DNA of 32,000 nucleotides from Candidatus Heimdallarchaeota archaeon B3_Heim. Its GTDB lineage: Archaea > Asgardarchaeota > Heimdallarchaeia > Hodarchaeales > Hodarchaeaceae. Where the stretch lies: NCBI GenBank assembly GCA_003144275.1, contig NJBF01000011.1, positions 1-32,000 on the forward strand, given 5' to 3'. Shown piece by piece: positions 3,586-17,483 of this stretch (positions within the stretch are counted from its first letter, which is position 1; every line of letters begins with the position of its first letter). The notes beneath the pieces were generated by a model that saw only the letters and a list, made by a program, of their open reading frames with translations, made no database searches and was not told the origin of the DNA. The translations under genes and the position numbers were made by a program.

Positions 3586-5661
3586 GTGGAAAAGAAATTG
3601 ACAAAATGGTTTTTTCAGCATGATCCTGAAGAATATTCTCTAAGAAGAGACGCAGATCAATCAGAAATTCAATGGTGGAATGCAAAAACCATTACTGAAA
3701 AGCCAAGGTTTAAGAAATATGTTAAGAAAGTGAAAAAGGGAGAATATTGTATTTTTTGGCAATCAGGCAGAAACAGTGGAATAGCTGGATATGGAAGAAT
3801 TGTGAAGGGAATTAATGACGAACCCTCTGACCAGATCCACGTAAAATATCATCATATTTTGGATAAAATAATTACAAAAGAAGAATTACAACATACGAAA
3901 GGTTTTCAACTGGAATACCTTGGTGATTTAGGAACTCCAGGGACATATTTTCCAATACCCCAACCTGATGGTTGGAATTTTTTTAAAAAGATATTTAAGA
4001 AAGAATTAGGGATGGAAATTGAAGTTTTAAAGGAAAAAAGAGAAGAAAAAATTATTTCTGATGATCTATATTCTAATCTTCTAGAATGGAAGCAATACTT
4101 GCTGAGAGATGGAGTTAGAATTTGGGATAATCATACATCGCAAGCAGAAAATGAATTTCAGAAAATGCGGGAAAAAGCTAATTTTAAAGAGAGTGGTAAT
4201 CTTTCCCATATTCAATTCAAAAAATTATTTGAATATATGAGACGTTTTTCTAATAATGTTGGTTTGCAAGATAAGCTGTTTAGAGATCTTGACTTTTTTA
4301 ATAAAAAGTTAAGAAAACTTTATTATGGAGAAATGGAGTTTCCAGAAAGAGTTGAAGATTTTCTTTCGATTAAAGGTATCGCTATTCATACACTTTCGCA
4401 ATTTCTAGTTATATTTAATTCAAAAAAATATCCAATAATTACTAGACCTATGAAAGAGATGTTAAATTTAAGTGAACATGAAAAAGAAGTTGCTTTGAGC
4501 TTAGCTTTAGATCATTGGTCCATTGAAGATCCTAATAAATATTCTCCCATGACTTTGCGATTTTTGAGAGATTTTATGGTAATGAAAGAAATTAAAGAAT
4601 TATTACAAATAGAAAAATATGATTCTATCAATAAACTATTATGGATGGCTTATGACGTTGAAGAAGAGGAGGAAGAGGAAATTGATGATGAATTTGGGGA
4701 GTTTGAGCCATATTCAATACCAAAATTTCTCTATTTTGATGCAAAAACGAAAGAAAAGTTGCAATACCAAATAGGTAATCTAATCTCAAAGGATTACCAT
4801 ATAATTCTTATTGGGCCTCCTGGAACTGGTAAAACAAAACTAGCAAAAGATATCATTAAAAATTTTCATGGCGAAGACTACATCATTACAACTGCAACCT
4901 CAGATTGGACCACAACAGAAACTATTGGTTCTTATTTTCCTGAAGAAGATTCAGGTGACATTTCATTCAAGCCAGGATTATTTCTTCAATGTTTTTCGAA
5001 GAATAAACCTACTAAATGGTTGTTAATAGATGAAATCAATCGTGCTGACATTGATAAAGCTTTTGGATATTTTTTTACCGTTCTATCTGGAGACCGAGTA
5101 ATTTTACCATTCACAAAATCCAAAATCCCTATTGAAATAATTCCAGAGGAAGAATTAACTTCAGAGGATCAAAAAAATGCAGAAAATGTCTATATTGTAC
5201 CGAAAAATTGGAAAATTATTGCCACAATGAATACATTTGATAAATCATCGCTTTATGAAATGAGCTACGCTTTTATGCGTCGTTTTGCTTTTATTTACCT
5301 TGATATCCCAAAGAATGTGGACAATCCTGATATTATTCAAGGATATCTTAAAGCATGGGGATATGAAACAGATATTGATGATTCTGAAACCGAAAATCTC
5401 TTTCAATTATGGAAAGTCATCAATGAGTATAGGAAGATTGGGCCTGCTGTGATTAAGGATATCCTTGATTATGGTTTTTACGAGGAAGACCTTATCGACA
5501 TATTAAAGCTGTTTATTATACCTCAATTCGAAGGTTTAGAAGAAGAACGTATTATTGTATTTATTCTTCACCTAAATAGGAGTTTTAATAGTGTTGAGAA
5601 GGCTGAATTGGTAAATTACTTCAATGAGTACTTTGATCTGACAATAACACTTCCAGATTAA
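3586..5661 (+). CDS. mcrB: McrB-like AAA+ GTPase with N-terminal EVE (PUA-like) domain
   Basis: N-terminus WFFQHDPEEY...VKKGEYCIFWQSG...GIAGYGRIV...TYFPI is EVE-like. Walker A GPPGTGKT, Walker B LLIDEINRAD, McrB signature MNTFD, and AFMRRFAF. Followed by an McrC-like gene. Confidence 0.88.
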   Translation: MEKKLTKWFFQHDPEEYSLRRDADQSEIQWWNAKTITEKPRFKKYVKKVKKGEYCIFWQSGRNSGIAGYGRIVKGINDEPSDQIHVKYHHILDKIITKEELQHTKGFQLEYLGDLGTPGTYFPIPQPDGWNFFKKIFKKELGMEIEVLKEKREEKIISDDLYSNLLEWKQYLLRDGVRIWDNHTSQAENEFQKMREKANFKESGNLSHIQFKKLFEYMRRFSNNVGLQDKLFRDLDFFNKKLRKLYYGEMEFPERVEDFLSIKGIAIHTLSQFLVIFNSKKYPIITRPMKEMLNLSEHEKEVALSLALDHWSIEDPNKYSPMTLRFLRDFMVMKEIKELLQIEKYDSINKLLWMAYDVEEEEEEEIDDEFGEFEPYSIPKFLYFDAKTKEKLQYQIGNLISKDYHIILIGPPGTGKTKLAKDIIKNFHGEDYIITTATSDWTTTETIGSYFPEEDSGDISFKPGLFLQCFSKNKPTKWLLIDEINRADIDKAFGYFFTVLSGDRVILPFTKSKIPIEIIPEEELTSEDQKNAENVYIVPKNWKIIATMNTFDKSSLYEMSYAFMRRFAFIYLDIPKNVDNPDIIQGYLKAWGYETDIDDSETENLFQLWKVINEYRKIGPAVIKDILDYGFYEEDLIDILKLFIIPQFEGLEEERIIVFILHLNRSFNSVEKAELVNYFNEYFDLTITLPD

Positions 5662-5685: not shown

Positions 5686-7104
5686 GTGAATTCAATCACA
5701 AAAACATCTGCTAACCAAATTTTAGAAGATGTTGGAATAGATTTAATGTTTTATTTGAAACAAGGTCTTAGATTCAAATCTGGATGTAATAAACTGAATC
5801 TCAATTTTTCTCAGGCAGACCTTATAAAACTTCTAAGGATTCAATTTTTGTTTCAGGATGATGTCCTAGATTTCTTGAACATCCTCAAAAAAGAGACGAA
5901 ACGAATAGGCCATATATCTACATTTAACCTAGTTAACGCTGATAAAATTGGAAATGGTGCAATTAATTGGCAAAAAACATTAAATTTAAGAGCTAAATCT
6001 GGTTTCACGCAAAAAAATTTGTATGCAATAAATGAACCTGAAAAATACTTTGAAACCAAGGAAAATCTTGTTTTAATTAAATTATTACAGAACCTTAGAG
6101 ACAGTTTCAATGAAATTAATTTTGCTCTTAAACAATCCTATGAATGGACTCAACAGATTCGTGACTCAAAGCTTTGGGATAAATTTCGATTTGTCTATTA
6201 CAGGAATCCATATCTTACAAATATTACACAGAAAAAGGTTACGATAAACCCTCGAACGATTCAAATTGTAAAAAAATCACGGAAGAAGCTATATAGGAGA
6301 GCTGCATTTCTACAAGAATGGTTTCACACATTAAGAAAACATATTTTTATTGAAAAAGACCTATCGAAATTTCTTGAAATATTTATTGTGAATCCTGATC
6401 AGATATCGGTGCTGTTTGAATTATATTGGATTATTCAGACATTAAAAGTTTTTAACGACCAAAAGGGGTTCCAAATAATTATGAAACCTCATAAAGGTGA
6501 TCAAAAAAACCTGATTGCTACATGGGAGGCCAATAATCTTACTTATCAACTTTTTCATAATTCTTTGGGTAATAAAACCTTTTTTTTGGAGAAAGCTGAA
6601 TTTAATAGTCTTCTTCAGGATTTTGATAAGCTTTCTCACCAATTTTTCTTTAGATATTATTCAGCGGTTAAGAAAAAACAAGATCTCATTGTTGAAGCGT
6701 TTAAAGACGAAAATCTAAATAAAAATGTTCTAAATCTTTGGACTGGAAGACCTGATGTTCTTATTGAAGCATATAATTCTGATTCATTGATTTTAGAGAA
6801 AATCCTCATTGTAGAAGTGAAATATAGTAGGAAGCTGCAATATATTTACCAAGGATTAGAACAGTTACTAATTTACTTAGCACTCATTAGGAGAAAGAGA
6901 TCTACAAAGTATTTACTTTCAAGAAGTCCCATTTCAACTGATTTAAAGGTTTCGGGTATGTTATGTTTTGATAAATTAGAAAATAATAATGTAATAGAAA
7001 TAAATAATCGTTTGAAAGAGTTAGGAGAACCTATAAGACTTTTTGAATATCAGCAAGATTTAACGTCATTTTTGACTAAATTTGCTGATTTGGATATTAA
7101 ATAA
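5686..7104 (+). CDS. mcrC: McrC-like PD-(D/E)XK restriction nuclease subunit
   Basis: 24 nt downstream of mcrB on the same strand; LFELYW motif and catalytic RPDVLI...IVEVKYS, then YQGLEQLLIYL. Confidence 0.78.
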   Translation: MNSITKTSANQILEDVGIDLMFYLKQGLRFKSGCNKLNLNFSQADLIKLLRIQFLFQDDVLDFLNILKKETKRIGHISTFNLVNADKIGNGAINWQKTLNLRAKSGFTQKNLYAINEPEKYFETKENLVLIKLLQNLRDSFNEINFALKQSYEWTQQIRDSKLWDKFRFVYYRNPYLTNITQKKVTINPRTIQIVKKSRKKLYRRAAFLQEWFHTLRKHIFIEKDLSKFLEIFIVNPDQISVLFELYWIIQTLKVFNDQKGFQIIMKPHKGDQKNLIATWEANNLTYQLFHNSLGNKTFFLEKAEFNSLLQDFDKLSHQFFFRYYSAVKKKQDLIVEAFKDENLNKNVLNLWTGRPDVLIEAYNSDSLILEKILIVEVKYSRKLQYIYQGLEQLLIYLALIRRKRSTKYLLSRSPISTDLKVSGMLCFDKLENNNVIEINNRLKELGEPIRLFEYQQDLTSFLTKFADLDIK

Positions 7105-7305
7105 ACTTTGAGAATCTTCTAAACTCATCTATAATCTTGAACAAATATTCACCTGACTTAATCAATCTTCCAAGTATGTAAAAAGCGTAGAAATGTAATG
7201 TGAAATAAACTAGAGGGACAATCTAATAGTTGATCAATATTTATTGCCCTTCAGGTGTCAGAAATTCTTTATTATCATCCTTAAGTCTGTCACTCGTTAT
7301 GTGAT

Positions 7306-7844
7306 TTATTCCTTTCCTTTACTAGACTTTTGTTTCAATTTGGCTGACTCCAAACTTAAATAATGTTCAGCTAATTCAATTCTAGTCCGAGTAGCTCCCT
7401 GTTTTTTTAATAACGATCCAATAGAATATTTAGGAGTTTCTAATCTCAGTAATTCAATTATTATATCTGTTAAGGTTAGCTCTGAGTCCACTACATCTTG
7501 TTTCTTCAAAGATAACTCAACTTTCTTATCTTTCTTCATTTGAGCTAACTTTTGCTTTCAAGTAGAATGAAAATCTTTTTTTTTTTATGAAACTGTTTTC
7601 TTTAAAACCATGTCAAATCAAAATATTTCCATTCATATTCAACATAGCATCCTAGCATTTGACCTAGATTAGCAAAATAACCCAAGATCATAGGTGTCCA
7701 TTTAGTATTATATTTTGTATCAGATCTAATACCAAATTGGCCATAATTTCTAATTATTCCATAAAATAAATCATCCATTTCGATCTTTAAAGTCATGATC
7801 CATCCCAATAAGTTATTTTTATAACCATAATACTGGTTCAACAA
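7306..7844 (-). pseudogene. Fragmented ORF(s), possibly a decayed nuclease-like gene
   Basis: ORF 7602-7844 (..LGCYVEYEWKYFDLTWF*) continues in frame past TAA as RKQFHKKKKIFILLESKS* across an A11 run (7576-7586); a separate 77-aa ORF occupies 7306-7539. Confidence 0.3.
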
Positions 7845-8350
7845 GTTATGCGCTTAAATTGCTTATTTAGGTTTGTAATAAGAGAGTTCTATTGTATTGG
7901 AAATAATTATGATAACAAAGAAACAAAATCTAAATAAAAAACTACTATATTCTGACCTCCAACAAATGATACCCTATAGAAGAAACAATAATCAGTAGGT
8001 TGATTAGGGTTTGTGAAAGGAAAGGAAGATCCCTAATGAGATTTGTAGAACGAATCTAGGCCTTTCCCCTGATAACCTCATATACACCGAGGATACACAT
8101 TATTTTATCAAACTCAGTGCTGATATCTGAATGTCTTTTAAAAATTATTTTTGACGTTCATCGCATTGACCCTGTCATCGAGAATAATTAGCGGTTCTAT
8201 ATTTTCAGAAACCAATATTCCTAGAGGTCATTTTTCTGAAAGATTTATATACCAATCAATGCTCTTAAAATAAGCATTAAAAATTTGGGATACAACTAGA
8301 GAGTTTGTCTAAACTGAATAATAGAGATTATATACAGATCTTTCATAAGA

Positions 8351-9575
8351 ATGAAATTTCTAGTGGAGGCTTATGTTTTGGCTGCGAAAAATCCAGTTGT
8401 TATAGTTGATGAAGACAATATTAGAAGTAATTTCATAAGTGAACTCAAATTAAACTATCGTATGAGGTTGAAAGCAATTAGTGAAGATCCACATGGGATT
8501 CTAGAGATTGATAAGGAATTATTGAATAAGGTGATCACCAATCCTATTCCAATTAGACATATTGTACCATCAACTGTTAATGACGATCTAAAGGTTGATG
8601 CATTTTTCAAAACATACAGAAAATCTTTTGTGATTGAATTCAAGGCTCCATATCTCTACCAGAGAAGAACAAGTGATAATCCATGTATTACTGCTGAAAT
8701 GAAATGGCGTCAGATCCATTACATGCAGGTAATATCTAAATTAACAACTGCAATAGGTGCTAATGTTCATGTTGAAACAGGTTATTATGCAATACCTTAT
8801 CCAGATCTACAATTGCCTCGTGCAGCTAAATATGATGAAAACAGTAAAAAAGAATTACTTGATCCTAGTAGGGATTCAATGGGAATAAATAAAGGTGAGG
8901 TTTGTAATCATCTTTTCTATTGCCCCTCGAGGCAAATTCGGCTTATTTCTCCATGCTCTCATCACCCACGTCATCATAGAGGAACTAAAAAGGCACGAGA
9001 CACACTTTGGGGGAGAAGGATAGCCAATTGGGTATTTAAATATAATATAAGTGACGTGAGAGCCAATAGTAGGATTGTTCCTGCTCATCCTCCTGATTGC
9101 AATCAACTGGTAATAGGAATTTATGAATGTTTACCTTTTCAAAATTTCTTCGAGCAGATTTTCACCCTTCCCAATCCAGGATCACCTTTTACAATAATAT
9201 CAGTATTTCTATTGAATAAACTTGTAGAAGCAAAGGGCGATATGAAAAAAGTTAGTATTGAATATAAAAAGCTTGAAAAAAGATTATCCCAAAACACTAC
9301 AGTCAGGAAGAACCTAACGTGGTTAAATAAGGAAAGTCTAGAGAAATTTTTAATCAAAATTTGTCCAATGGAAGCTGATTTAAAACCCCTAAATAAGTGG
9401 TTAAAATCTAGTAATTTGATTTTGATCCCAGAATTTGTTAATAAAGATCAAAAAATTTCCCAAAAGACATTATGCAATTCATCATATCGACTGGAATCCA
9501 AATAATAATGAGAATACGAATTTACTACTCCTGTGTTCACAGTGTCACCTAAGTTACCATAGGAAAAGAAAATAA
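8351..9575 (+). CDS. PD-(D/E)XK-like nuclease with C-terminal HNH domain reached by a +1 frameshift
   Basis: Main frame has KVDAFFKTYRKSFVIEFKAP (D...ExK) and a Cys/His cluster, and stops at 9505. The +1 frame from the A6 run at 9450-9455 reads KFPKRHYAIHHIDWNPNNNENTNLLLLCSQCHLSYHRKRK* (stop 9573-9575), a canonical HNH motif. Confidence 0.7.
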
Positions 9576-9831: not shown

Positions 9832-9912
9832 ACTCTTTTTGGCATTTATAATACTCATAACCCGCATAAAACGCCCCCAAAATGAAGTCATTAACCAAAC
9901 CAAATACATGGG
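9832..9912 (+). repeat. 81-bp direct repeat, copy 1
   Basis: actctttttggcatttataatactcataacccgcataaaacgcccccaaaatgaagtcattaaccaaaccaaatacatggg; 5 mismatches versus 12053-12133 by manual alignment. Confidence 0.92.
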
Positions 9913-10011: not shown

Positions 10012-11898
10012 ATGAGGACGAGGATGGCCATAATCATATTAATACTGATTCTGATGTTGAGTTCAAATAGTATAAGCGCCAAGAAAGCTACAAATGAGCA
10101 ACAAGAATCGTCATATGATCTCTACGCATCAACATTTCTTGGTGGATTTGGGGATGATATTGTGTGGGATAATACTGTTGATGAGGAAGGGTATATTTAT
10201 CTAACGGGAACAACAGACTCTCCTTTATTTCCAGTAACTCCTAATGCAGCAAATAGTACCTATGGCGGTTCTGATGATGCCTTTTTAGTGAAAATGGATC
10301 CTTTTGCGAGTACTGTTCTTTATGCTACTTTTTGGGGGGGAAGTAGCTATGATGTTGGATACGCAATTACCTTGGATTCGATAGGAAATATTTACATTGG
10401 GGGTTTTACTCAATCAGTAGACTTTCCATTATCGATTGGAGCATATAATTCGACAAAACTAGGTTCGCACAAGGACGGTTTTATTGCAAAATTTGATCCT
10501 TATGGACAGATGCTCTATTCAACACTTTTGGGCTCAGTTACTACTGTTCAATCGCTTACTGTATTAGCTGATGATTCGATCGTGGCAGGGGGCTTGATAA
10601 AAGACATAGATTTTTTAATTACTTCAGCCAATGCTTATGATCAGACTTTAGGTGCTTCAGAAGATGGGTACATTTTTTGCCTTTCTGCTGATGGAAGCAC
10701 TCTTGTCTATAGCTCATATATTGGAGGGGCACAGAACGAAATTATTATGGATATTGACGCTGTTGGTGATCACGTGGTATTTACAGGGGAAACTCGCTCG
10801 GCAGATCTTGAAGTCATGAATGCAGAACAAACACAGTTAGGATCCACAAATGTCGATGCTTTTGTAGGTAGGTTAAATATATTAAATGGACAAATGAATT
10901 TCTTGACCTACTGGGGAGGAAATATGGTGGATATCGGTAAAGCAGTGTACATTGATGATGATGGTGATGTCTGTGTGGTTGGAAAAACCGAATCTCGGGA
11001 TTTTCCATTTACTTTCAACGCATATGACCCAAGTCTATACACTGGTTTTAATGTCTTTGTTACTCATTTTCTTTCTAATGGATCGGTAGCTTACAGTTCG
11101 TTTGCTGGTAGTGTATCGGGAATCTATGACATTGCACCTCTATCAGACAAACGTGTTGCATTTGTAGGAACTGGTAGTGATCTTCCTACCACTCCAAATG
11201 CTTATTATGATGGAACTGGGGGATTTTTTGCCATACTAGCAACCGATAGACCTTATTTACATTATTGTAGTTATTTATCGGAAGGAACAAATAGCCCTTT
11301 TTCGGTAACTATTGGTGAAGGGGAAACGATATATTTAGCAGGTTATACAACTAGTCCCTCATTTCCTACAACAAATGGTTGTTTTGATCCCACGTTTGTA
11401 GGAGCTAACGATGGTTTTCTAACTATTTTTACACCTAGTATTGCTACATTAAGTGTTTCTTTAACATCGGTGCTGGTGACTAATTTAACATCGGCATTTC
11501 TATTTTCTGTAATGGATACTACTACTGGCTTGCCTCTTTCCTCAGTAACAGTCACGGGAACGTTTTTGATTATTTCATATCCAGCTGTGGAAACTATAGA
11601 GGGTTCATATCTCCTTATTGTCCCGCATTCCCTAACTCCTGAACTACTAGTTGTTACTGTTCAAAAAATGGGTTATGTCACTGAGACGTTAGTTCTAACC
11701 ATATTAATGGATGTACCTTCTATTATCATTACCGAGGTGACTTATATCACCCTTATCAATACTTCGACTACAAACACATTGACTAATAACACCTTGACAA
11801 CACCTACTGCAACCACTCCTGAGAGTACCCCTTTGCCTGGAATAATCTTTTTCCTTACGTTGGGGGTTGTAGTAATTGTTAAGAGAAAACGTAGATAG
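10012..11898 (+). CDS. SBBP-repeat (seven-bladed beta-propeller) surface protein with C-terminal anchor
   Basis: Signal peptide; repeated STFLGG..D.....VD..G.IY..G.T.S..FP.T..A motif; Thr-rich linker; ends TPLPGIIFFLTLGVVVIVKRKRR. Confidence 0.88.
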   Translation: MRTRMAIIILILILMLSSNSISAKKATNEQQESSYDLYASTFLGGFGDDIVWDNTVDEEGYIYLTGTTDSPLFPVTPNAANSTYGGSDDAFLVKMDPFASTVLYATFWGGSSYDVGYAITLDSIGNIYIGGFTQSVDFPLSIGAYNSTKLGSHKDGFIAKFDPYGQMLYSTLLGSVTTVQSLTVLADDSIVAGGLIKDIDFLITSANAYDQTLGASEDGYIFCLSADGSTLVYSSYIGGAQNEIIMDIDAVGDHVVFTGETRSADLEVMNAEQTQLGSTNVDAFVGRLNILNGQMNFLTYWGGNMVDIGKAVYIDDDGDVCVVGKTESRDFPFTFNAYDPSLYTGFNVFVTHFLSNGSVAYSSFAGSVSGIYDIAPLSDKRVAFVGTGSDLPTTPNAYYDGTGGFFAILATDRPYLHYCSYLSEGTNSPFSVTIGEGETIYLAGYTTSPSFPTTNGCFDPTFVGANDGFLTIFTPSIATLSVSLTSVLVTNLTSAFLFSVMDTTTGLPLSSVTVTGTFLIISYPAVETIEGSYLLIVPHSLTPELLVVTVQKMGYVTETLVLTILMDVPSIIITEVTYITLINTSTTNTLTNNTLTTPTATTPESTPLPGIIFFLTLGVVVIVKRKRR

Positions 11899-12050: not shown

Positions 12051-12254
12051 TTACTCTTTTTGGTATTTATAATACTCATAACCTGCATAAAACGCCCCCA
12101 AAATGAAACCATAAACCAAACCAAATACATGGGCAAGTAAAGGATTTCCCAGTGTTCTAGGAACGTCAAGAAAGTAACCAGTCGCACCTGCATAAATATT
12201 GACCAATATTAAGATAAACATTTGGAAATCAGTAAAGTGAATTATTTCTCTCAT
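12051..12254 (-). CDS. Small two-TM membrane protein
   Basis: 67 aa with two hydrophobic segments (FILILVNIYAGATGYF; LLAHVFGLVYGFILGAFYAG). Its 3' end is duplicated at 9832-9912. Confidence 0.5.
   Translation of the reverse strand: MREIIHFTDFQMFILILVNIYAGATGYFLDVPRTLGNPLLAHVFGLVYGFILGAFYAGYEYYKYQKE
12053..12133 (+). repeat. 81-bp direct repeat, copy 2
   Basis: Matches 9832-9912 (76/81 identical); encodes the C-terminal half of the small membrane protein on the minus strand. Confidence 0.92.
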
Positions 12255-12715: not shown

Positions 12716-15700
12716 TTATCTAAACAAATCTTCATAATCTTCAATATTATAGTGCTTAATTAAAATATCATCGATTTTCTTTTTTGTAGTGGATATTTCT
12801 GAACTTAGCTCCTTCATGTTAAAAGTTTTTATCGGACTATCCTTAAATTTGCCTGTTCCACTTATCTCATCCTTGAACCAATCAAATAAATTATTCATTA
12901 TTTGATGAATCGAGGTAATCCTATTTGTTCTCGGTAATTTAACAACTTTTAAGATTGCAAAGTCTTTATCCAAGATTTTTAGATCCTCTTTTTTATCATC
13001 TAAGTACGCACATATCGATAAGTAATAAAACCAAGTAATAGTTTCATCGATTAGTTTTAGTATGATTTTTTTGTCGTTTAGTATATCTAGGATTAAGGTT
13101 GTATCATCATGAATTTCAACATCATAGAACTTCTTATTTGATTCAGACTTAACAATTTTTGTTTCATTGTAAACTATACCATAATTACGTGCGTCACGAT
13201 AGCTTTTTATTAATCTGGAGATTGAGAACTCACTAACCTGATATTTGTGAAGTTCGTCAGAAAACCTTTCATTTATGACATTAAATTGCATAGAAGTAAT
13301 TTCTAAAATATTAACTAGGTCAATAACTTCTGTTTGTTCGGCATCATTGATTCTAGGAACTGGAAAATTTTCTACATTGTGTTTTAACACATCTAAACCA
13401 TTTCCTAGAAATTTATTGAAATAACCTAATATTGTTCCTGAATTAATTACTCCTAGCAGATACTTAATGTTATAGCTTTTAGATAAAAGTAATTCTTCTT
13501 CGCTCAAAGAAGGAGCGCTTTTTCCGAATTTTTTTCTTTCTACATCTTTAATATAATCTTTTTGAATTACGATTAATACTGTTTGATGTATTATTCTTTC
13601 CTCAGGATCGAATGCACCCTTTATATTTTTACCAGCAATTCTCGGGATTACTATCTTTGGATTGATTAACAATTCAGAAAATTTTGCTTTCCAACTCTTT
13701 GGATCATCTGCAAAATCCCAACCTTCTTTTTGAAGTTGTAAATAGTAATCCTTATCATCTGTATACAGAAAATAAGTTCCTCCTTTATCAGAAATATAGT
13801 ATTGAGTAATTTGTTTCCCTTTTAAATACGGTTTTGTCACTAACCCATTAACAGTTTTCGGTACTCTACTCTCAAAGGAGCTCAATGGTGAGATTTGTAT
13901 CCCATTGGTGATATAACAGACATCGCTCAATTTAATTGAATTTTCATTCATTTTCTTATAAAGTTCCCAGTCTTCATTCGAAATTAATCTCCAGCTAAGA
14001 TCCTTTAATTGAGAGAAGTTGCTTACATTGAGTGCAAAAGCTGATAGCATAAGTATCTGATTATCTCTAGGGTCTTCCAGTGGCTTATTTATCTTAACTT
14101 CTGACGTCTGCTCCTTTTTTACAATATGAAATATAATGGTATCAATAGTTGCTTCAGGAAATACCTTATAATCCCTTAAATCCACAAGAAACTGCAAACT
14201 AAATTCTTTAAGTATAAGTTCTCGAATTTTAATTGCATTTTGTTCATCTAATAAAGATCCGGGAATAATAAAACTGAAAGATCCTGATTCTCTTAAATTA
14301 AACAAACATTTTTCAACGAATAATAAATAAAGATCATACCGTTGATATTGATAAGAAAATAGGGGAGTTAAAATATCACGATAGTCATTTGGTAAATTAT
14401 TATATTCAACATAAGGAGGATTTCCAATTATTATATCGAAACTTGAAAAACCAAAAAGGACATTCCAGTCAGTGATTAGAGAATCATTATTCTTAATATT
14501 TTCAAGTAAAAACATTCTCTGACTTTCTGAAGGTAAAAAATCCAAATTCTGATAAGCACCATAAAGAGATTTATCTCCAATTAATTTATGAAACATAAGA
14601 TTCATTTTAGTCAAATCTACAGCTTCAGGTACAATATCAATTCCAAAAATATTGTATTTAATAGGATCATTGACTGGATCATATTCTCTTGCAATTTTTT
14701 CGTCGAATTCAACCTTAATCCGTTCTACAAAAAGCGATCCATCTTTTGTTTTCCATTCTCCTATTGCAATTGATTTTCTCCTAGCATATTCTGTCTTCAA
14801 CACGTTGTAAACCTTAATGAGGAACGAACCAGAACCGCAAGCTGGATCTAGTATTTTAATTTTGCGCAAATCGCCATTAAAACTGGATAAAAAAGGAATT
14901 AGTGTCTCACGTACGATATGGTCAACAACATATGAAGGAGTGTAATATTGACCTTTTAATTTTCTTTCATTTTCATCTGTTGTCGAAAATTTTACAATTT
15001 CTGCTAAAAAATGCTCATAGATATCTCCAAGGATATCTTCAGTTAAATTTTGATAGTTAAGCTTAGAAAACTCATCAATCAATTCCTCGATATATTCTTC
15101 TTTTATTTCGTATCCATGATCGAAGAGTTCATCATCAACAAAAAGGGGGCCATTATATCTCTTGTTTATTTTCTTGAATGTCAAATCGATTAAATTCCAA
15201 GATGGGGTTTCTTCTATCAAGTCTTTGAATACTGCTTTATAATCATCAGAAAGTCTATTGGGTTCAATACCCCAATATTCAATACTCTTCACAAAAATCA
15301 GTTTTTGGAGGAGTCTCATCCTTATTTTATGAAAATAAACATTCATTGAAACTCCTGATTGTATTACTTTTTCCTCAGTTGATTCTAAAACTGTAATATT
15401 ATCCTTTAACTTTTCATAATGTTCTTTTAGAAGACTAGTTATCTTTTCAATAGTATCCTGAACTCTAAATTGATTTCTCATTAATATGGTTAACCGATCA
15501 TTGATTAAATGATATTTATTGTCATCAATGCGTAAAAGATTTTTTAGAACTGTTAGATTCCTCTCATCATCATCTGATCTTACTGTCAATAGACACAAGT
15601 CAGATAATTGCTTGTGAGGTGTGAAAGTTTTGTAAACAAACCATTGCTTTCCGTTTGATACAACAAACCAAGGAATTCCCATCTTAGTGGCATATTCATG

Positions 15701-15982
15701 TGCCTGATCGATTGCTTTTTTTGTGTTCTTATGTTTAAAATCGGGTAAATTCTTATCTGTAATGCGAAAATTCACTCCTGTTCGTTTTGCTTCAATTACA
15801 ATCGTTTTAACATCGGAGTCGACATGTTCAGAGAATAAATAATCTAAAACTCTCCTATCTTCTTGAGGTTCCAGTTTTAAGACTCTTGATTTTATTAACT
15901 CCTCAATATCCCAATTACAATCTCTTAATAATCTATCAATATATACAACACGAGTCTCAGCCTCAGTTAAATCATCAGACAT
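12716..15982 (-). CDS. Type IIG (fused REase-MTase-TRD) restriction-modification enzyme, N6-adenine methyltransferase class
   Basis: N-terminal EAETR...VLDYL...VIEAKR nuclease; GQYYTPSYVVDHIV; motif I ILDPACGSGSFL; motif IV IIGNPPYV; TaqI-C-like target recognition region. ATG 15982 preferred over TTG 15997. Confidence 0.92.
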   Translation of the reverse strand: MSDDLTEAETRVVYIDRLLRDCNWDIEELIKSRVLKLEPQEDRRVLDYLFSEHVDSDVKTIVIEAKRTGVNFRITDKNLPDFKHKNTKKAIDQAHEYATKMGIPWFVVSNGKQWFVYKTFTPHKQLSDLCLLTVRSDDDERNLTVLKNLLRIDDNKYHLINDRLTILMRNQFRVQDTIEKITSLLKEHYEKLKDNITVLESTEEKVIQSGVSMNVYFHKIRMRLLQKLIFVKSIEYWGIEPNRLSDDYKAVFKDLIEETPSWNLIDLTFKKINKRYNGPLFVDDELFDHGYEIKEEYIEELIDEFSKLNYQNLTEDILGDIYEHFLAEIVKFSTTDENERKLKGQYYTPSYVVDHIVRETLIPFLSSFNGDLRKIKILDPACGSGSFLIKVYNVLKTEYARRKSIAIGEWKTKDGSLFVERIKVEFDEKIAREYDPVNDPIKYNIFGIDIVPEAVDLTKMNLMFHKLIGDKSLYGAYQNLDFLPSESQRMFLLENIKNNDSLITDWNVLFGFSSFDIIIGNPPYVEYNNLPNDYRDILTPLFSYQYQRYDLYLLFVEKCLFNLRESGSFSFIIPGSLLDEQNAIKIRELILKEFSLQFLVDLRDYKVFPEATIDTIIFHIVKKEQTSEVKINKPLEDPRDNQILMLSAFALNVSNFSQLKDLSWRLISNEDWELYKKMNENSIKLSDVCYITNGIQISPLSSFESRVPKTVNGLVTKPYLKGKQITQYYISDKGGTYFLYTDDKDYYLQLQKEGWDFADDPKSWKAKFSELLINPKIVIPRIAGKNIKGAFDPEERIIHQTVLIVIQKDYIKDVERKKFGKSAPSLSEEELLLSKSYNIKYLLGVINSGTILGYFNKFLGNGLDVLKHNVENFPVPRINDAEQTEVIDLVNILEITSMQFNVINERFSDELHKYQVSEFSISRLIKSYRDARNYGIVYNETKIVKSESNKKFYDVEIHDDTTLILDILNDKKIILKLIDETITWFYYLSICAYLDDKKEDLKILDKDFAILKVVKLPRTNRITSIHQIMNNLFDWFKDEISGTGKFKDSPIKTFNMKELSSEISTTKKKIDDILIKHYNIEDYEDLFR

Positions 15983-16735
15983 TATAATAATCTCCAAAAT
16001 TGAACTAGTAAGATTTTGGTAAGAATTAATTCCTAAAGAATTATCTATGTCAACCTAGTTTTTGAGAATTTAAACACTTCTACTATTGTACAAGCAAATC
16101 TGGTTAATATCCTCCAAAAATAGCCAGATGGTTCACAAAAATCTAGATTTCATAATTTTTTGGCAATAAATCCTGTTAAACCAACTAAAAAATTATCCAC
16201 CCACTTGAGGTAAATGTTATGTTTGGTTTATCTGCAGCTTCGTTCCCTATGTCAAGCCACGTTTGGATTTGCCTCCACTCTACCGTAGATAGAAAATTGT
16301 TTTTTGATTCAACATTTATTCTCTGACATTGAAATTTTATTTTGGAATGTTATCAGATATTACGAATCTGAGACAAATCAAATTGTTTTCAAATATTTTG
16401 ATGAATTAAAAATCTAATTGAGTTTATTCAATGGAAAAGAACAACCAAATATGAATGAGACAAAATCCTAGTTATAAAAAGTCAATGAACTCCCATAAGC
16501 TTAATCAAGAAGGTAATTGAAAATATTATATGATTTCAATAGTCGGGGTATCCTTAAGATTAACATATAAATGAAATATGTAGATATTCTCATATGAAAG
16601 CTTTATTTGACACATAGAAATATTACAATGACTTTTTTGCGTATTACAGGGGAAGGTGTAATATATGTTTGACGAAGTTCACAACACTGAAAAAAGAATG
16701 TAAATGTTCATTTGTCCACCAATTTCATTATCTCT

Positions 16736-17191
16736 TCAAATCTTTCTGCTTTTCCTTGCAGTTAGGACTAGCTCCTTAATTTCTGATGGCAATTGTTCAT
16801 CTTGCCATTTTCTTTCTACATCTATTGATTTACTTGCATTTTTCACGACTTTCAGAGCATATAACGCCGCACCTAATGAATGGTCAGCCATATGAGCAGT
16901 TGCAACAGCGTGTCCAACAGAACGAGCCACTGCAATTGCAATCGGGTTTGAAGATTCGTTTGCTACCGCAATTGCATCTAATGAAGCTTTTCTTGCCTCA
17001 TCAACTGAAGTATTTCCTTGTTTCCACTCTTTAGCCACATTTAGTGCATTTTTTAGTCGCTCATCAATTTTTTCTCCAAAGAGATACAATACATTCTCCG
17101 CACAGTCGCAAGCCCATTTAATTAACTGATAGTGCTGTTCCTTTTTTAGAGGTCCGCCCCGATGTTCAGCAATAAATCGTTTGTCTCGCAT
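16736..17191 (-). CDS. Imm5-like putative immunity protein
   Basis: MRDKRFIAEHRGGPL...WACDCAENVL...ARSVGHAVATAHMADHSLGAALYALK matches my recollection of the Imm5-like family. ATG at 17191. Confidence 0.75.
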   Translation of the reverse strand: MRDKRFIAEHRGGPLKKEQHYQLIKWACDCAENVLYLFGEKIDERLKNALNVAKEWKQGNTSVDEARKASLDAIAVANESSNPIAIAVARSVGHAVATAHMADHSLGAALYALKVVKNASKSIDVERKWQDEQLPSEIKELVLTARKSRKI

Positions 17192-17483
17192 TTTTGCCTT
17201 TGTCCGCAATGTTTCGTTATGTTTTATGATGTAAACTGGAGATTCTAATCCTTTAAACTCATAAAAATGTATATATCAAAAGCTAGCTAAAAAAATTAAC
17301 AGATTTATTTGCCGAAAGCCAGGTTTAAGAAATCAAATAATTGTATGACGAACTAGAAGAAAATTTGTAAAAATGAAGCGTTCTGTTGATTTCGCGGGAT
17401 TCTCTTTTCAACCAGAGATTGATGATCAGTTAAAGTAAACTGCATCCCAAATAATTCCCTCATTACCTTCCACTTAACCAATC

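Follow-up and report, generated by a model that had tools for sequence, protein, structure and literature searches.

A rare PD-(D/E)XK-like nuclease gene in a defense island and the out-of-frame HNH sequence beside it, most likely a gene remnant

The HNH sequence that lies out of frame at the end of the ORF at positions 8351 to 9505 of the window (the whole 32,000-nucleotide stretch of DNA that was analyzed, to which all coordinates refer unless another locus is named) is most likely what is left of another, truncated gene and not a hidden second nuclease domain. In the explanation that we favor, and that we regard as probable, a rare gene for a stand-alone PD-(D/E)XK-like nuclease, located in a defense island, abuts a 3' remnant that comes from a separate HNH gene. 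The original prediction was of a dual nuclease, in which a PD-(D/E)XK N terminus and a frameshift-masked HNH domain belong to one protein. Its two components hold up, as the D...ExK motif is conserved throughout the family and the sequence in the +1 frame is HNH derived; the single two-domain protein does not.

The nuclease ORF and its family

Translation confirmed that the ORF ends at 9505, as had been predicted, and gave a product of 384 amino acids, here called P0001. The database gene call for the same ORF (P0002) uses a TTG start at 8378 and is 375 aa long. The features of the ORF that are shared with its homologues are the following.

8351 to 9505, plus strand: ORF encoding P0001 (384 aa), which belongs to what appears to be a very rare protein family and ends with NKDQKISQKTLCNSSYRLESK followed by a stop codon.
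8567 to 8644, plus strand: PD-(D/E)XK-type core motif (P73-S74-x-V76, V82-D83-A84, and E96-F97-K98), invariant in the three-sequence alignment A1.
9176 to 9427, plus strand: conserved C-terminal helical region (N275-P276-G277..F280-T281, W350-L351, and L356-I357-x-I359 in A1).

The KVDAFF...VIEFK sequence on which the prediction of an N-terminal nuclease was based is present in P0001 and contains residues D83 (gat, 8597 to 8599), E96 (gaa, 8636 to 8638), and K98 (aag, 8642 to 8644). These three residues are invariant in all three family members, along with P73, S74, V76, V82, A84, K91, S92, and F97; further invariant positions in A1 are P100, Y103, R105, E116, W119, and Q121. Judged by sequence, D83...E96-x-K98 is the classical PD-(D/E)XK arrangement. 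The secondary structure of a low-confidence AlphaFold2 model has strands at residues 84 to 89 and 92 to 97, followed by a long helix at 115 to 134. D83, E96, and K98 are placed on two successive strands before a long helix even in this poor model. The pLDDT values of two AlphaFold2 models (32 for the whole protein and 41 for residues 50 to 180) were too low to confirm the fold. Among the structural neighbors of residues 65 to 156 in an ESM Atlas model (pLDDT of 0.47) were the PD-(D/E)XK families SduA_C, SfsA, PDDEXK_3, NERD, PDDEXK_5, and DUF4365, with TM scores over those residues of up to 0.49 (at most 0.5); we take DUF4365 to be a PD-(D/E)XK family. P0001 had no match in Pfam, NCBIfam, PADLOC, or PDB sequences, and comparison of A1 with two Shedu SduA_C proteins by hhalign gave a probability of 0.2%. 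We infer that P0001 is a putative Mg2+-dependent DNA endonuclease that may act as a stand-alone restriction-like or defense nuclease. The window's genome also encodes, on another contig, a 387-aa Shedu-type protein (SduA_C, E of 4e-17; G000:C29:3029-3481, minus strand, equivalent to L057 1456-2619, minus strand), which is unrelated to P0001 by hhalign.

Two other parts of P0001 can be set beside the motif. The Cys/His cluster pointed out in the original prediction is found at about residues 196 to 220. Part of it is shared with one homologue (P0004) and it is deleted in the other (P0003) in A1, and it is therefore not a family feature. The C-terminal helical domain, of about 100 aa, has no known relatives, and an ESM Atlas search with it was uninformative. 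This region contains the best-modeled part of the AlphaFold2 prediction (residues 283 to 336, with 10-residue block means of 55 to 74), where confidence is still low.

A full HMMER scan of 1.84e9 cluster representatives recovered P0003 (328 aa, 34% identity, E of 5.5e-32) and P0004 (359 aa, 31% identity, E of 1.8e-29) as the only homologues. Searches of 60 close relatives, 400 genomes from the phylum, one-per-species genome contigs, and viral contigs yielded no relative of P0001. Word-based searches with P0001 and with A1 recovered P0004 and the window's own protein and nothing else, and neither the window's own genome nor its genus contains a paralogue of the ORF, of the HNH tail, or of the DNA. 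On these searches, the family appears to be very rare, with three known members whose proteins are about 330 to 360 aa long. The only metagenome locus that came up as a further homologue (L014) was rejected, its KVDAFFKTY sequence being a chance match inside an unrelated 731-aa protein.

The ends of the homologues bear directly on the predicted fusion. Both align to P0001 from residue 18 to residue 357 or 359 and end within 1 to 3 residues of that point, so that family homology stops at about residue 359 of P0001. Where P0001 reads LILIP, P0003 reads LILIK and P0004 reads LIGIR, each followed directly by TAA. The HNH tail expected of a fusion is found in neither of the two homologues, both of which end before the A run, and the DNA of the two loci contains no HNH in any frame downstream of the genes. 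Genomic context exists for two family members, both of which adjoin defense genes. The P0003 locus is near a PD-Lambda-4_A-like gene (E of 9e-36) and a weak PDC-S02-like gene; it has no neighbor gene in common with the window, and the family is without a conserved partner gene. No split genes were seen in the flanks of P0003 or P0004. The product of the gene upstream of P0003 (L002 7922-9862, plus strand) is 646 aa long and combines a zincin-like HEVGHxxGxxH motif with a poly-Thr stalk and, at the C terminus, a membrane anchor; it is a surface protease and not a defense protein.

The A run and the out-of-frame HNH sequence

Beyond the conserved region, the ORF runs on into three overlapping features.

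9428 to 9505, plus strand: frame-0 tail of the ORF, 25 codons and a stop (EFVNKDQKISQKTLCNSSYRLESK), without counterpart in the homologues.
9450 to 9455, plus strand: A6 run, at which one A fewer joins frame 0 to the HNH frame.
9426 to 9575, plus strand: open +1 frame of 49 codons with an HNH (His-Me finger) core at about 9468 to 9560 and a stop codon at 9573 to 9575.

Both the position of the A6 run and the joining of the frames by loss of one A are as originally described. The run sits in the nonconserved extension, 8 codons past the family C terminus, and over its last 13 codons the frame-0 tail passes, in the wrong frame, through the HNH-derived DNA. The HNH motif itself was also borne out: the +1 frame reads ...KKFPKRHYAIHHIDWNPNNNENTNLLLLCSQCHLSYHRKRK and then a stop, with the core pattern HHID…N…N…LCSQCH…H, in which the catalytic residues are present; this motif occurs in the +1 frame only. 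It was matched by four PADLOC ZorE HNH models (E of 8e-7 to 6e-4). A 183-aa protein with a C-terminal HNH, encoded by an ORF in a genome of the same class (L016), matches the tail with 56 to 58% identity over 31 to 32 residues. The HNH likeness of the +1 frame is more than chance. By a rough estimate, 49 open codons would arise by chance in AT-rich DNA in about 2% of cases.

Other searches with this frame gave partial matches or none. It scored 16.5 to 17.9 bits against Pfam HNH and HNH_3, below their cutoffs of 21.4 and 24.8. Matches to Pfam HNH (PF01844; 16.5 to 16.9 bits against 21.4) covered only positions 13 to 47 of 47, and those to HNH_3 covered only positions 16 to 39 of 46. The frame has no ATG. 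Word-based searches of the HNH tail against longer proteins and searches against phage records found no match, PDB sequences gave chance matches only, and an exact-pattern scan for the junction in genome contigs found no match. PF01844 found nothing at an E of ≤0.001 in the window's own genome.

The HNH piece also lacks a zinc knuckle. Where an HNH domain has a CxxC as its helix begins (here LCSQCH), this motif pairs with a zinc knuckle located before the beta-hairpin (PMC5714182). Over the roughly 75 nt that precede the HH (9400 to 9473), none of the frames contains a CxxC, however the frames are joined. A search of 83 genomes of the class gave 58 PF01844 matches, of which 54 start at profile position 7 or earlier, and nearly all of the HNH ORFs fetched from related genomes that have a helix-side CxxC also have an upstream one, with one clear exception (L048). 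Because the zinc knuckle is absent and only Pfam positions 13 to 47 are covered, the HNH piece looks like an N-terminally truncated 3' gene remnant and not a complete domain. Its catalytic residues are intact and its 49 codons are open, and the truncation would therefore be recent, or the piece would still be used or under selection. Several ORFs of 416 to 493 aa in genomes of the same class (L029, L031, L033, L034, and L038) have a canonical HNH (EHIxPKSRGG...NLxxxCxKCNxKK) at about residues 210 to 275, a mid-protein layout and a size that recall IscB/Cas9-like nucleases.

A related strain is represented in an estuary metagenome (X1) by two short unitigs that are about 97 to 99% identical to the gene. 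One of them (151 nt, depth of 2) spans 9349 to 9466 with three mismatches, at positions not located, and without a gap, and this strain therefore also has A6. Beyond the match, the unitig continues with 33 unrelated letters (CCAAAAAAATTAAAAAAGAAAGGAGATAAG...) in which frame 0 stays open (PKKLKKKGDK) and the HNH frame meets a TAA. This 33-letter end is absent from the window and from the window's genome. The breakpoint between the two strains lies at or before 9466, where the HNH homology begins. At face value, and on the thin evidence of this one low-depth unitig, A6 would be the native state of frame 0, and the 3' end of either strain may be the ancestral one. The second unitig (9157-9340; 9270-9281) has an extra A in the A run starting at 9276, inside the nuclease ORF, which is either a frameshift in that strain or a low-depth error.

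Genomic neighborhood and origin of the junction

The original prediction placed the gene between McrBC and a type IIG restriction-modification (RM) gene, which was partly confirmed. An McrB-like protein with EVE and AAA_5 domains is encoded at 3586 to 5661 (the McrB-like match, with an E of 2e-12, is below the cutoff), and a type IIG RM enzyme is encoded at 12716 to 15997 on the minus strand. The place of McrC, directly after the McrB-like gene, is taken by a 472-aa ORF (5686 to 7104, plus strand) that has no Pfam, NCBIfam, or PADLOC match, so that McrC is not confirmed. Between this ORF and the nuclease gene, from 7105 to 8350, the only ORF of at least 80 aa is a TTG frame of 80 aa on the minus strand (7602 to 7844), which is without a profile match. 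Just beyond the type IIG gene, a 157-aa ORF (16736 to 17209, minus strand) has a strong match to an Imm-5-like immunity protein (PF21805, E of 4e-42).

An 81-bp direct repeat whose copies are 94% identical (9832 to 9912 and 12053 to 12133) brackets the gene that follows the nuclease ORF, which encodes an SBBP beta-propeller surface protein (10012 to 11898). With an ORF-poor stretch before the nuclease gene and a direct repeat around the next gene, the island is therefore a patchwork, and the location of the repeat next to the nuclease gene is consistent with rearrangement or insertion. A search for terminal or direct repeats around the nuclease ORF itself found only short AT-rich repeats, as chance predicts. 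A rough count, across the whole genome, of adjoining ORFs in different frames did not separate assembly indels from normal gene overlaps.

In the explanation that we favor, the native nuclease protein would end at about residue 359, and the HNH of the +1 frame would come from the 3' end of another HNH gene, of the treble-clef type, whose N-terminal half, including the zinc knuckle, had been lost. A rearrangement in the patchwork defense island would have placed this remnant beside the nuclease gene. The nuclease ORF would consequently have gained about 25 codons, the last 13 of them running through the remnant out of frame, and the HNH piece would not be translated as part of the nuclease protein. 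Against this account stand the single base that restores a continuous frame, the 49 open codons of the HNH frame with all catalytic residues retained, the number of homologues, which are only two and distant, the single unitig of depth 2 from the related strain, and a PD-(D/E)XK fold that neither AlphaFold2 nor any profile confirmed. Gain of a domain in one lineage is common among defense genes.

In a true lineage-specific fusion, a 407-aa PD-(D/E)XK-HNH protein would have its HNH masked by a one-base insertion in the A run. Such an insertion could have arisen through misassembly, through a recent mutation that inactivated the domain, or through reversible slippage at the homopolymer (phase variation). 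The frame that becomes continuous with one A fewer, the intact HNH core, a stop codon in the position seen in genuine C-terminal HNH proteins, the PADLOC HNH matches (E of 8e-7), and the position of the gene in a defense island all fit a fusion. We nevertheless consider it unlikely, as the domain occurs in neither of the two homologues and the joined protein would be without a zinc knuckle. The sequence as assembled requires a 1-nt deletion to bring both domains into one frame, and the second strain has A6 as well, together with a different 3' end. A run of this kind is also unremarkable here, where the genome contains 6514 A/T runs of length 6. That the locus encodes a genuine two-nuclease defense effector, with a PD-(D/E)XK domain and a knuckle-less HNH that is switched by changes in the length of the A run, seems to us distinctly improbable. 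A further mechanism would be a programmed +1 ribosomal frameshift or transcriptional slippage at the run, yielding a minor PD-(D/E)XK-HNH isoform. A tRNA-Lys on AAA (9452 to 9454) can re-pair with AAA (9453 to 9455), after which TTT would be read, but the A site holds neither a slow codon nor a stop codon (the next codon is ATT), no conserved stimulator is present, and the homologues have neither the A run nor the HNH. An A6 run is short for efficient transcriptional slippage. We regard this last mechanism as scarcely credible.

A different origin of the junction would be an HNH gene of about 70 aa that was split when a ~1.06-kb cassette with the PD-(D/E)XK gene inserted into it. The 5' half, with a zinc knuckle (...GGLCFGCEK), would lie at about 8305 to 8391 and the 3' half at 9456 to 9575, flanked by a 6-nt direct repeat (AAAAAT at 8387 to 8392 and at 9451 to 9456). 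The frame in question is the following.

8281 to 8409, plus strand: open frame of 42 codons, a speculative candidate for the zinc-knuckle half, which ends with ...SSGGLCFGCEKSSCYS and a stop and overlaps the start of P0001 in another frame.

The end of this frame (...GGLCFGCEKSSCYS and a stop) contains a knuckle-like motif, and the frame resembles the N terminus of an 84-aa HNH ORF (L021; z = 5 versus shuffles) that also matches the tail. Joining 8391 to 9456 across the AAAAAT repeat preserves the reading frame and puts 10 residues between the knuckle and the HH. The divergence of the X1 unitig near the right-hand junction and the unrelated contexts of the family members point in the same direction. 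On the other hand, the 5' piece has no Pfam or PADLOC match and no match below an E of 0.05 in 83 genomes, and the window has many chance tblastn matches that score as well. None of the possible starts of P0001 is free of overlap with the CxxC codons, chance alone predicts short AT-rich repeats, and the homologues have no split genes beside them. We therefore think a split gene very doubtful; if it were true, the nuclease gene would be a mobile, homing-like element.

If the remnant reading that we favor holds, the "hidden dual nuclease" is an artifact of reading a gene remnant through a frameshift, which is a caution for motif-based scanning of defense islands. What would remain is a very rare family with a conserved nuclease motif, and thereby a candidate, reasonable though not exceptional, for a new restriction-like nuclease encoded by one gene. 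A split gene or phase variation would be of greater interest, on evidence that is weak.

Comparison with known systems

The +1 frame shares with treble-clef HNH (His-Me finger) domains (PF01844; classification in PMC5714182) the pattern HH...N...N-L...L-C-x-x-C-H...H, and its stop lies a few residues after the motif, as in C-terminal HNH proteins such as that of the 183-aa ORF. It differs from them in being out of frame, in lacking a start of its own and a zinc knuckle, and in scoring below both Pfam cutoffs. The nearest profiles are those of the ZorE HNH; unlike in Zorya, no Zorya gene is linked to the sequence.

P0001 resembles the PD-(D/E)XK superfamily (survey in PMC3424549) in its D...(D/E)xK motif, whose D and E are separated by 12 residues, and in the placement of this motif, which is invariant in the family, on two adjacent predicted strands ahead of a long helix. 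Unlike described families of the superfamily, to which it has no sequence or profile match, it has an extra C-terminal helical domain of ~100 aa. Although P0001 has no detectable homology to Shedu (SduA; 0.2% in hhalign), it is like Shedu and other single-gene PD-(D/E)XK defense nucleases in that a defense island contains it as one candidate nuclease gene.
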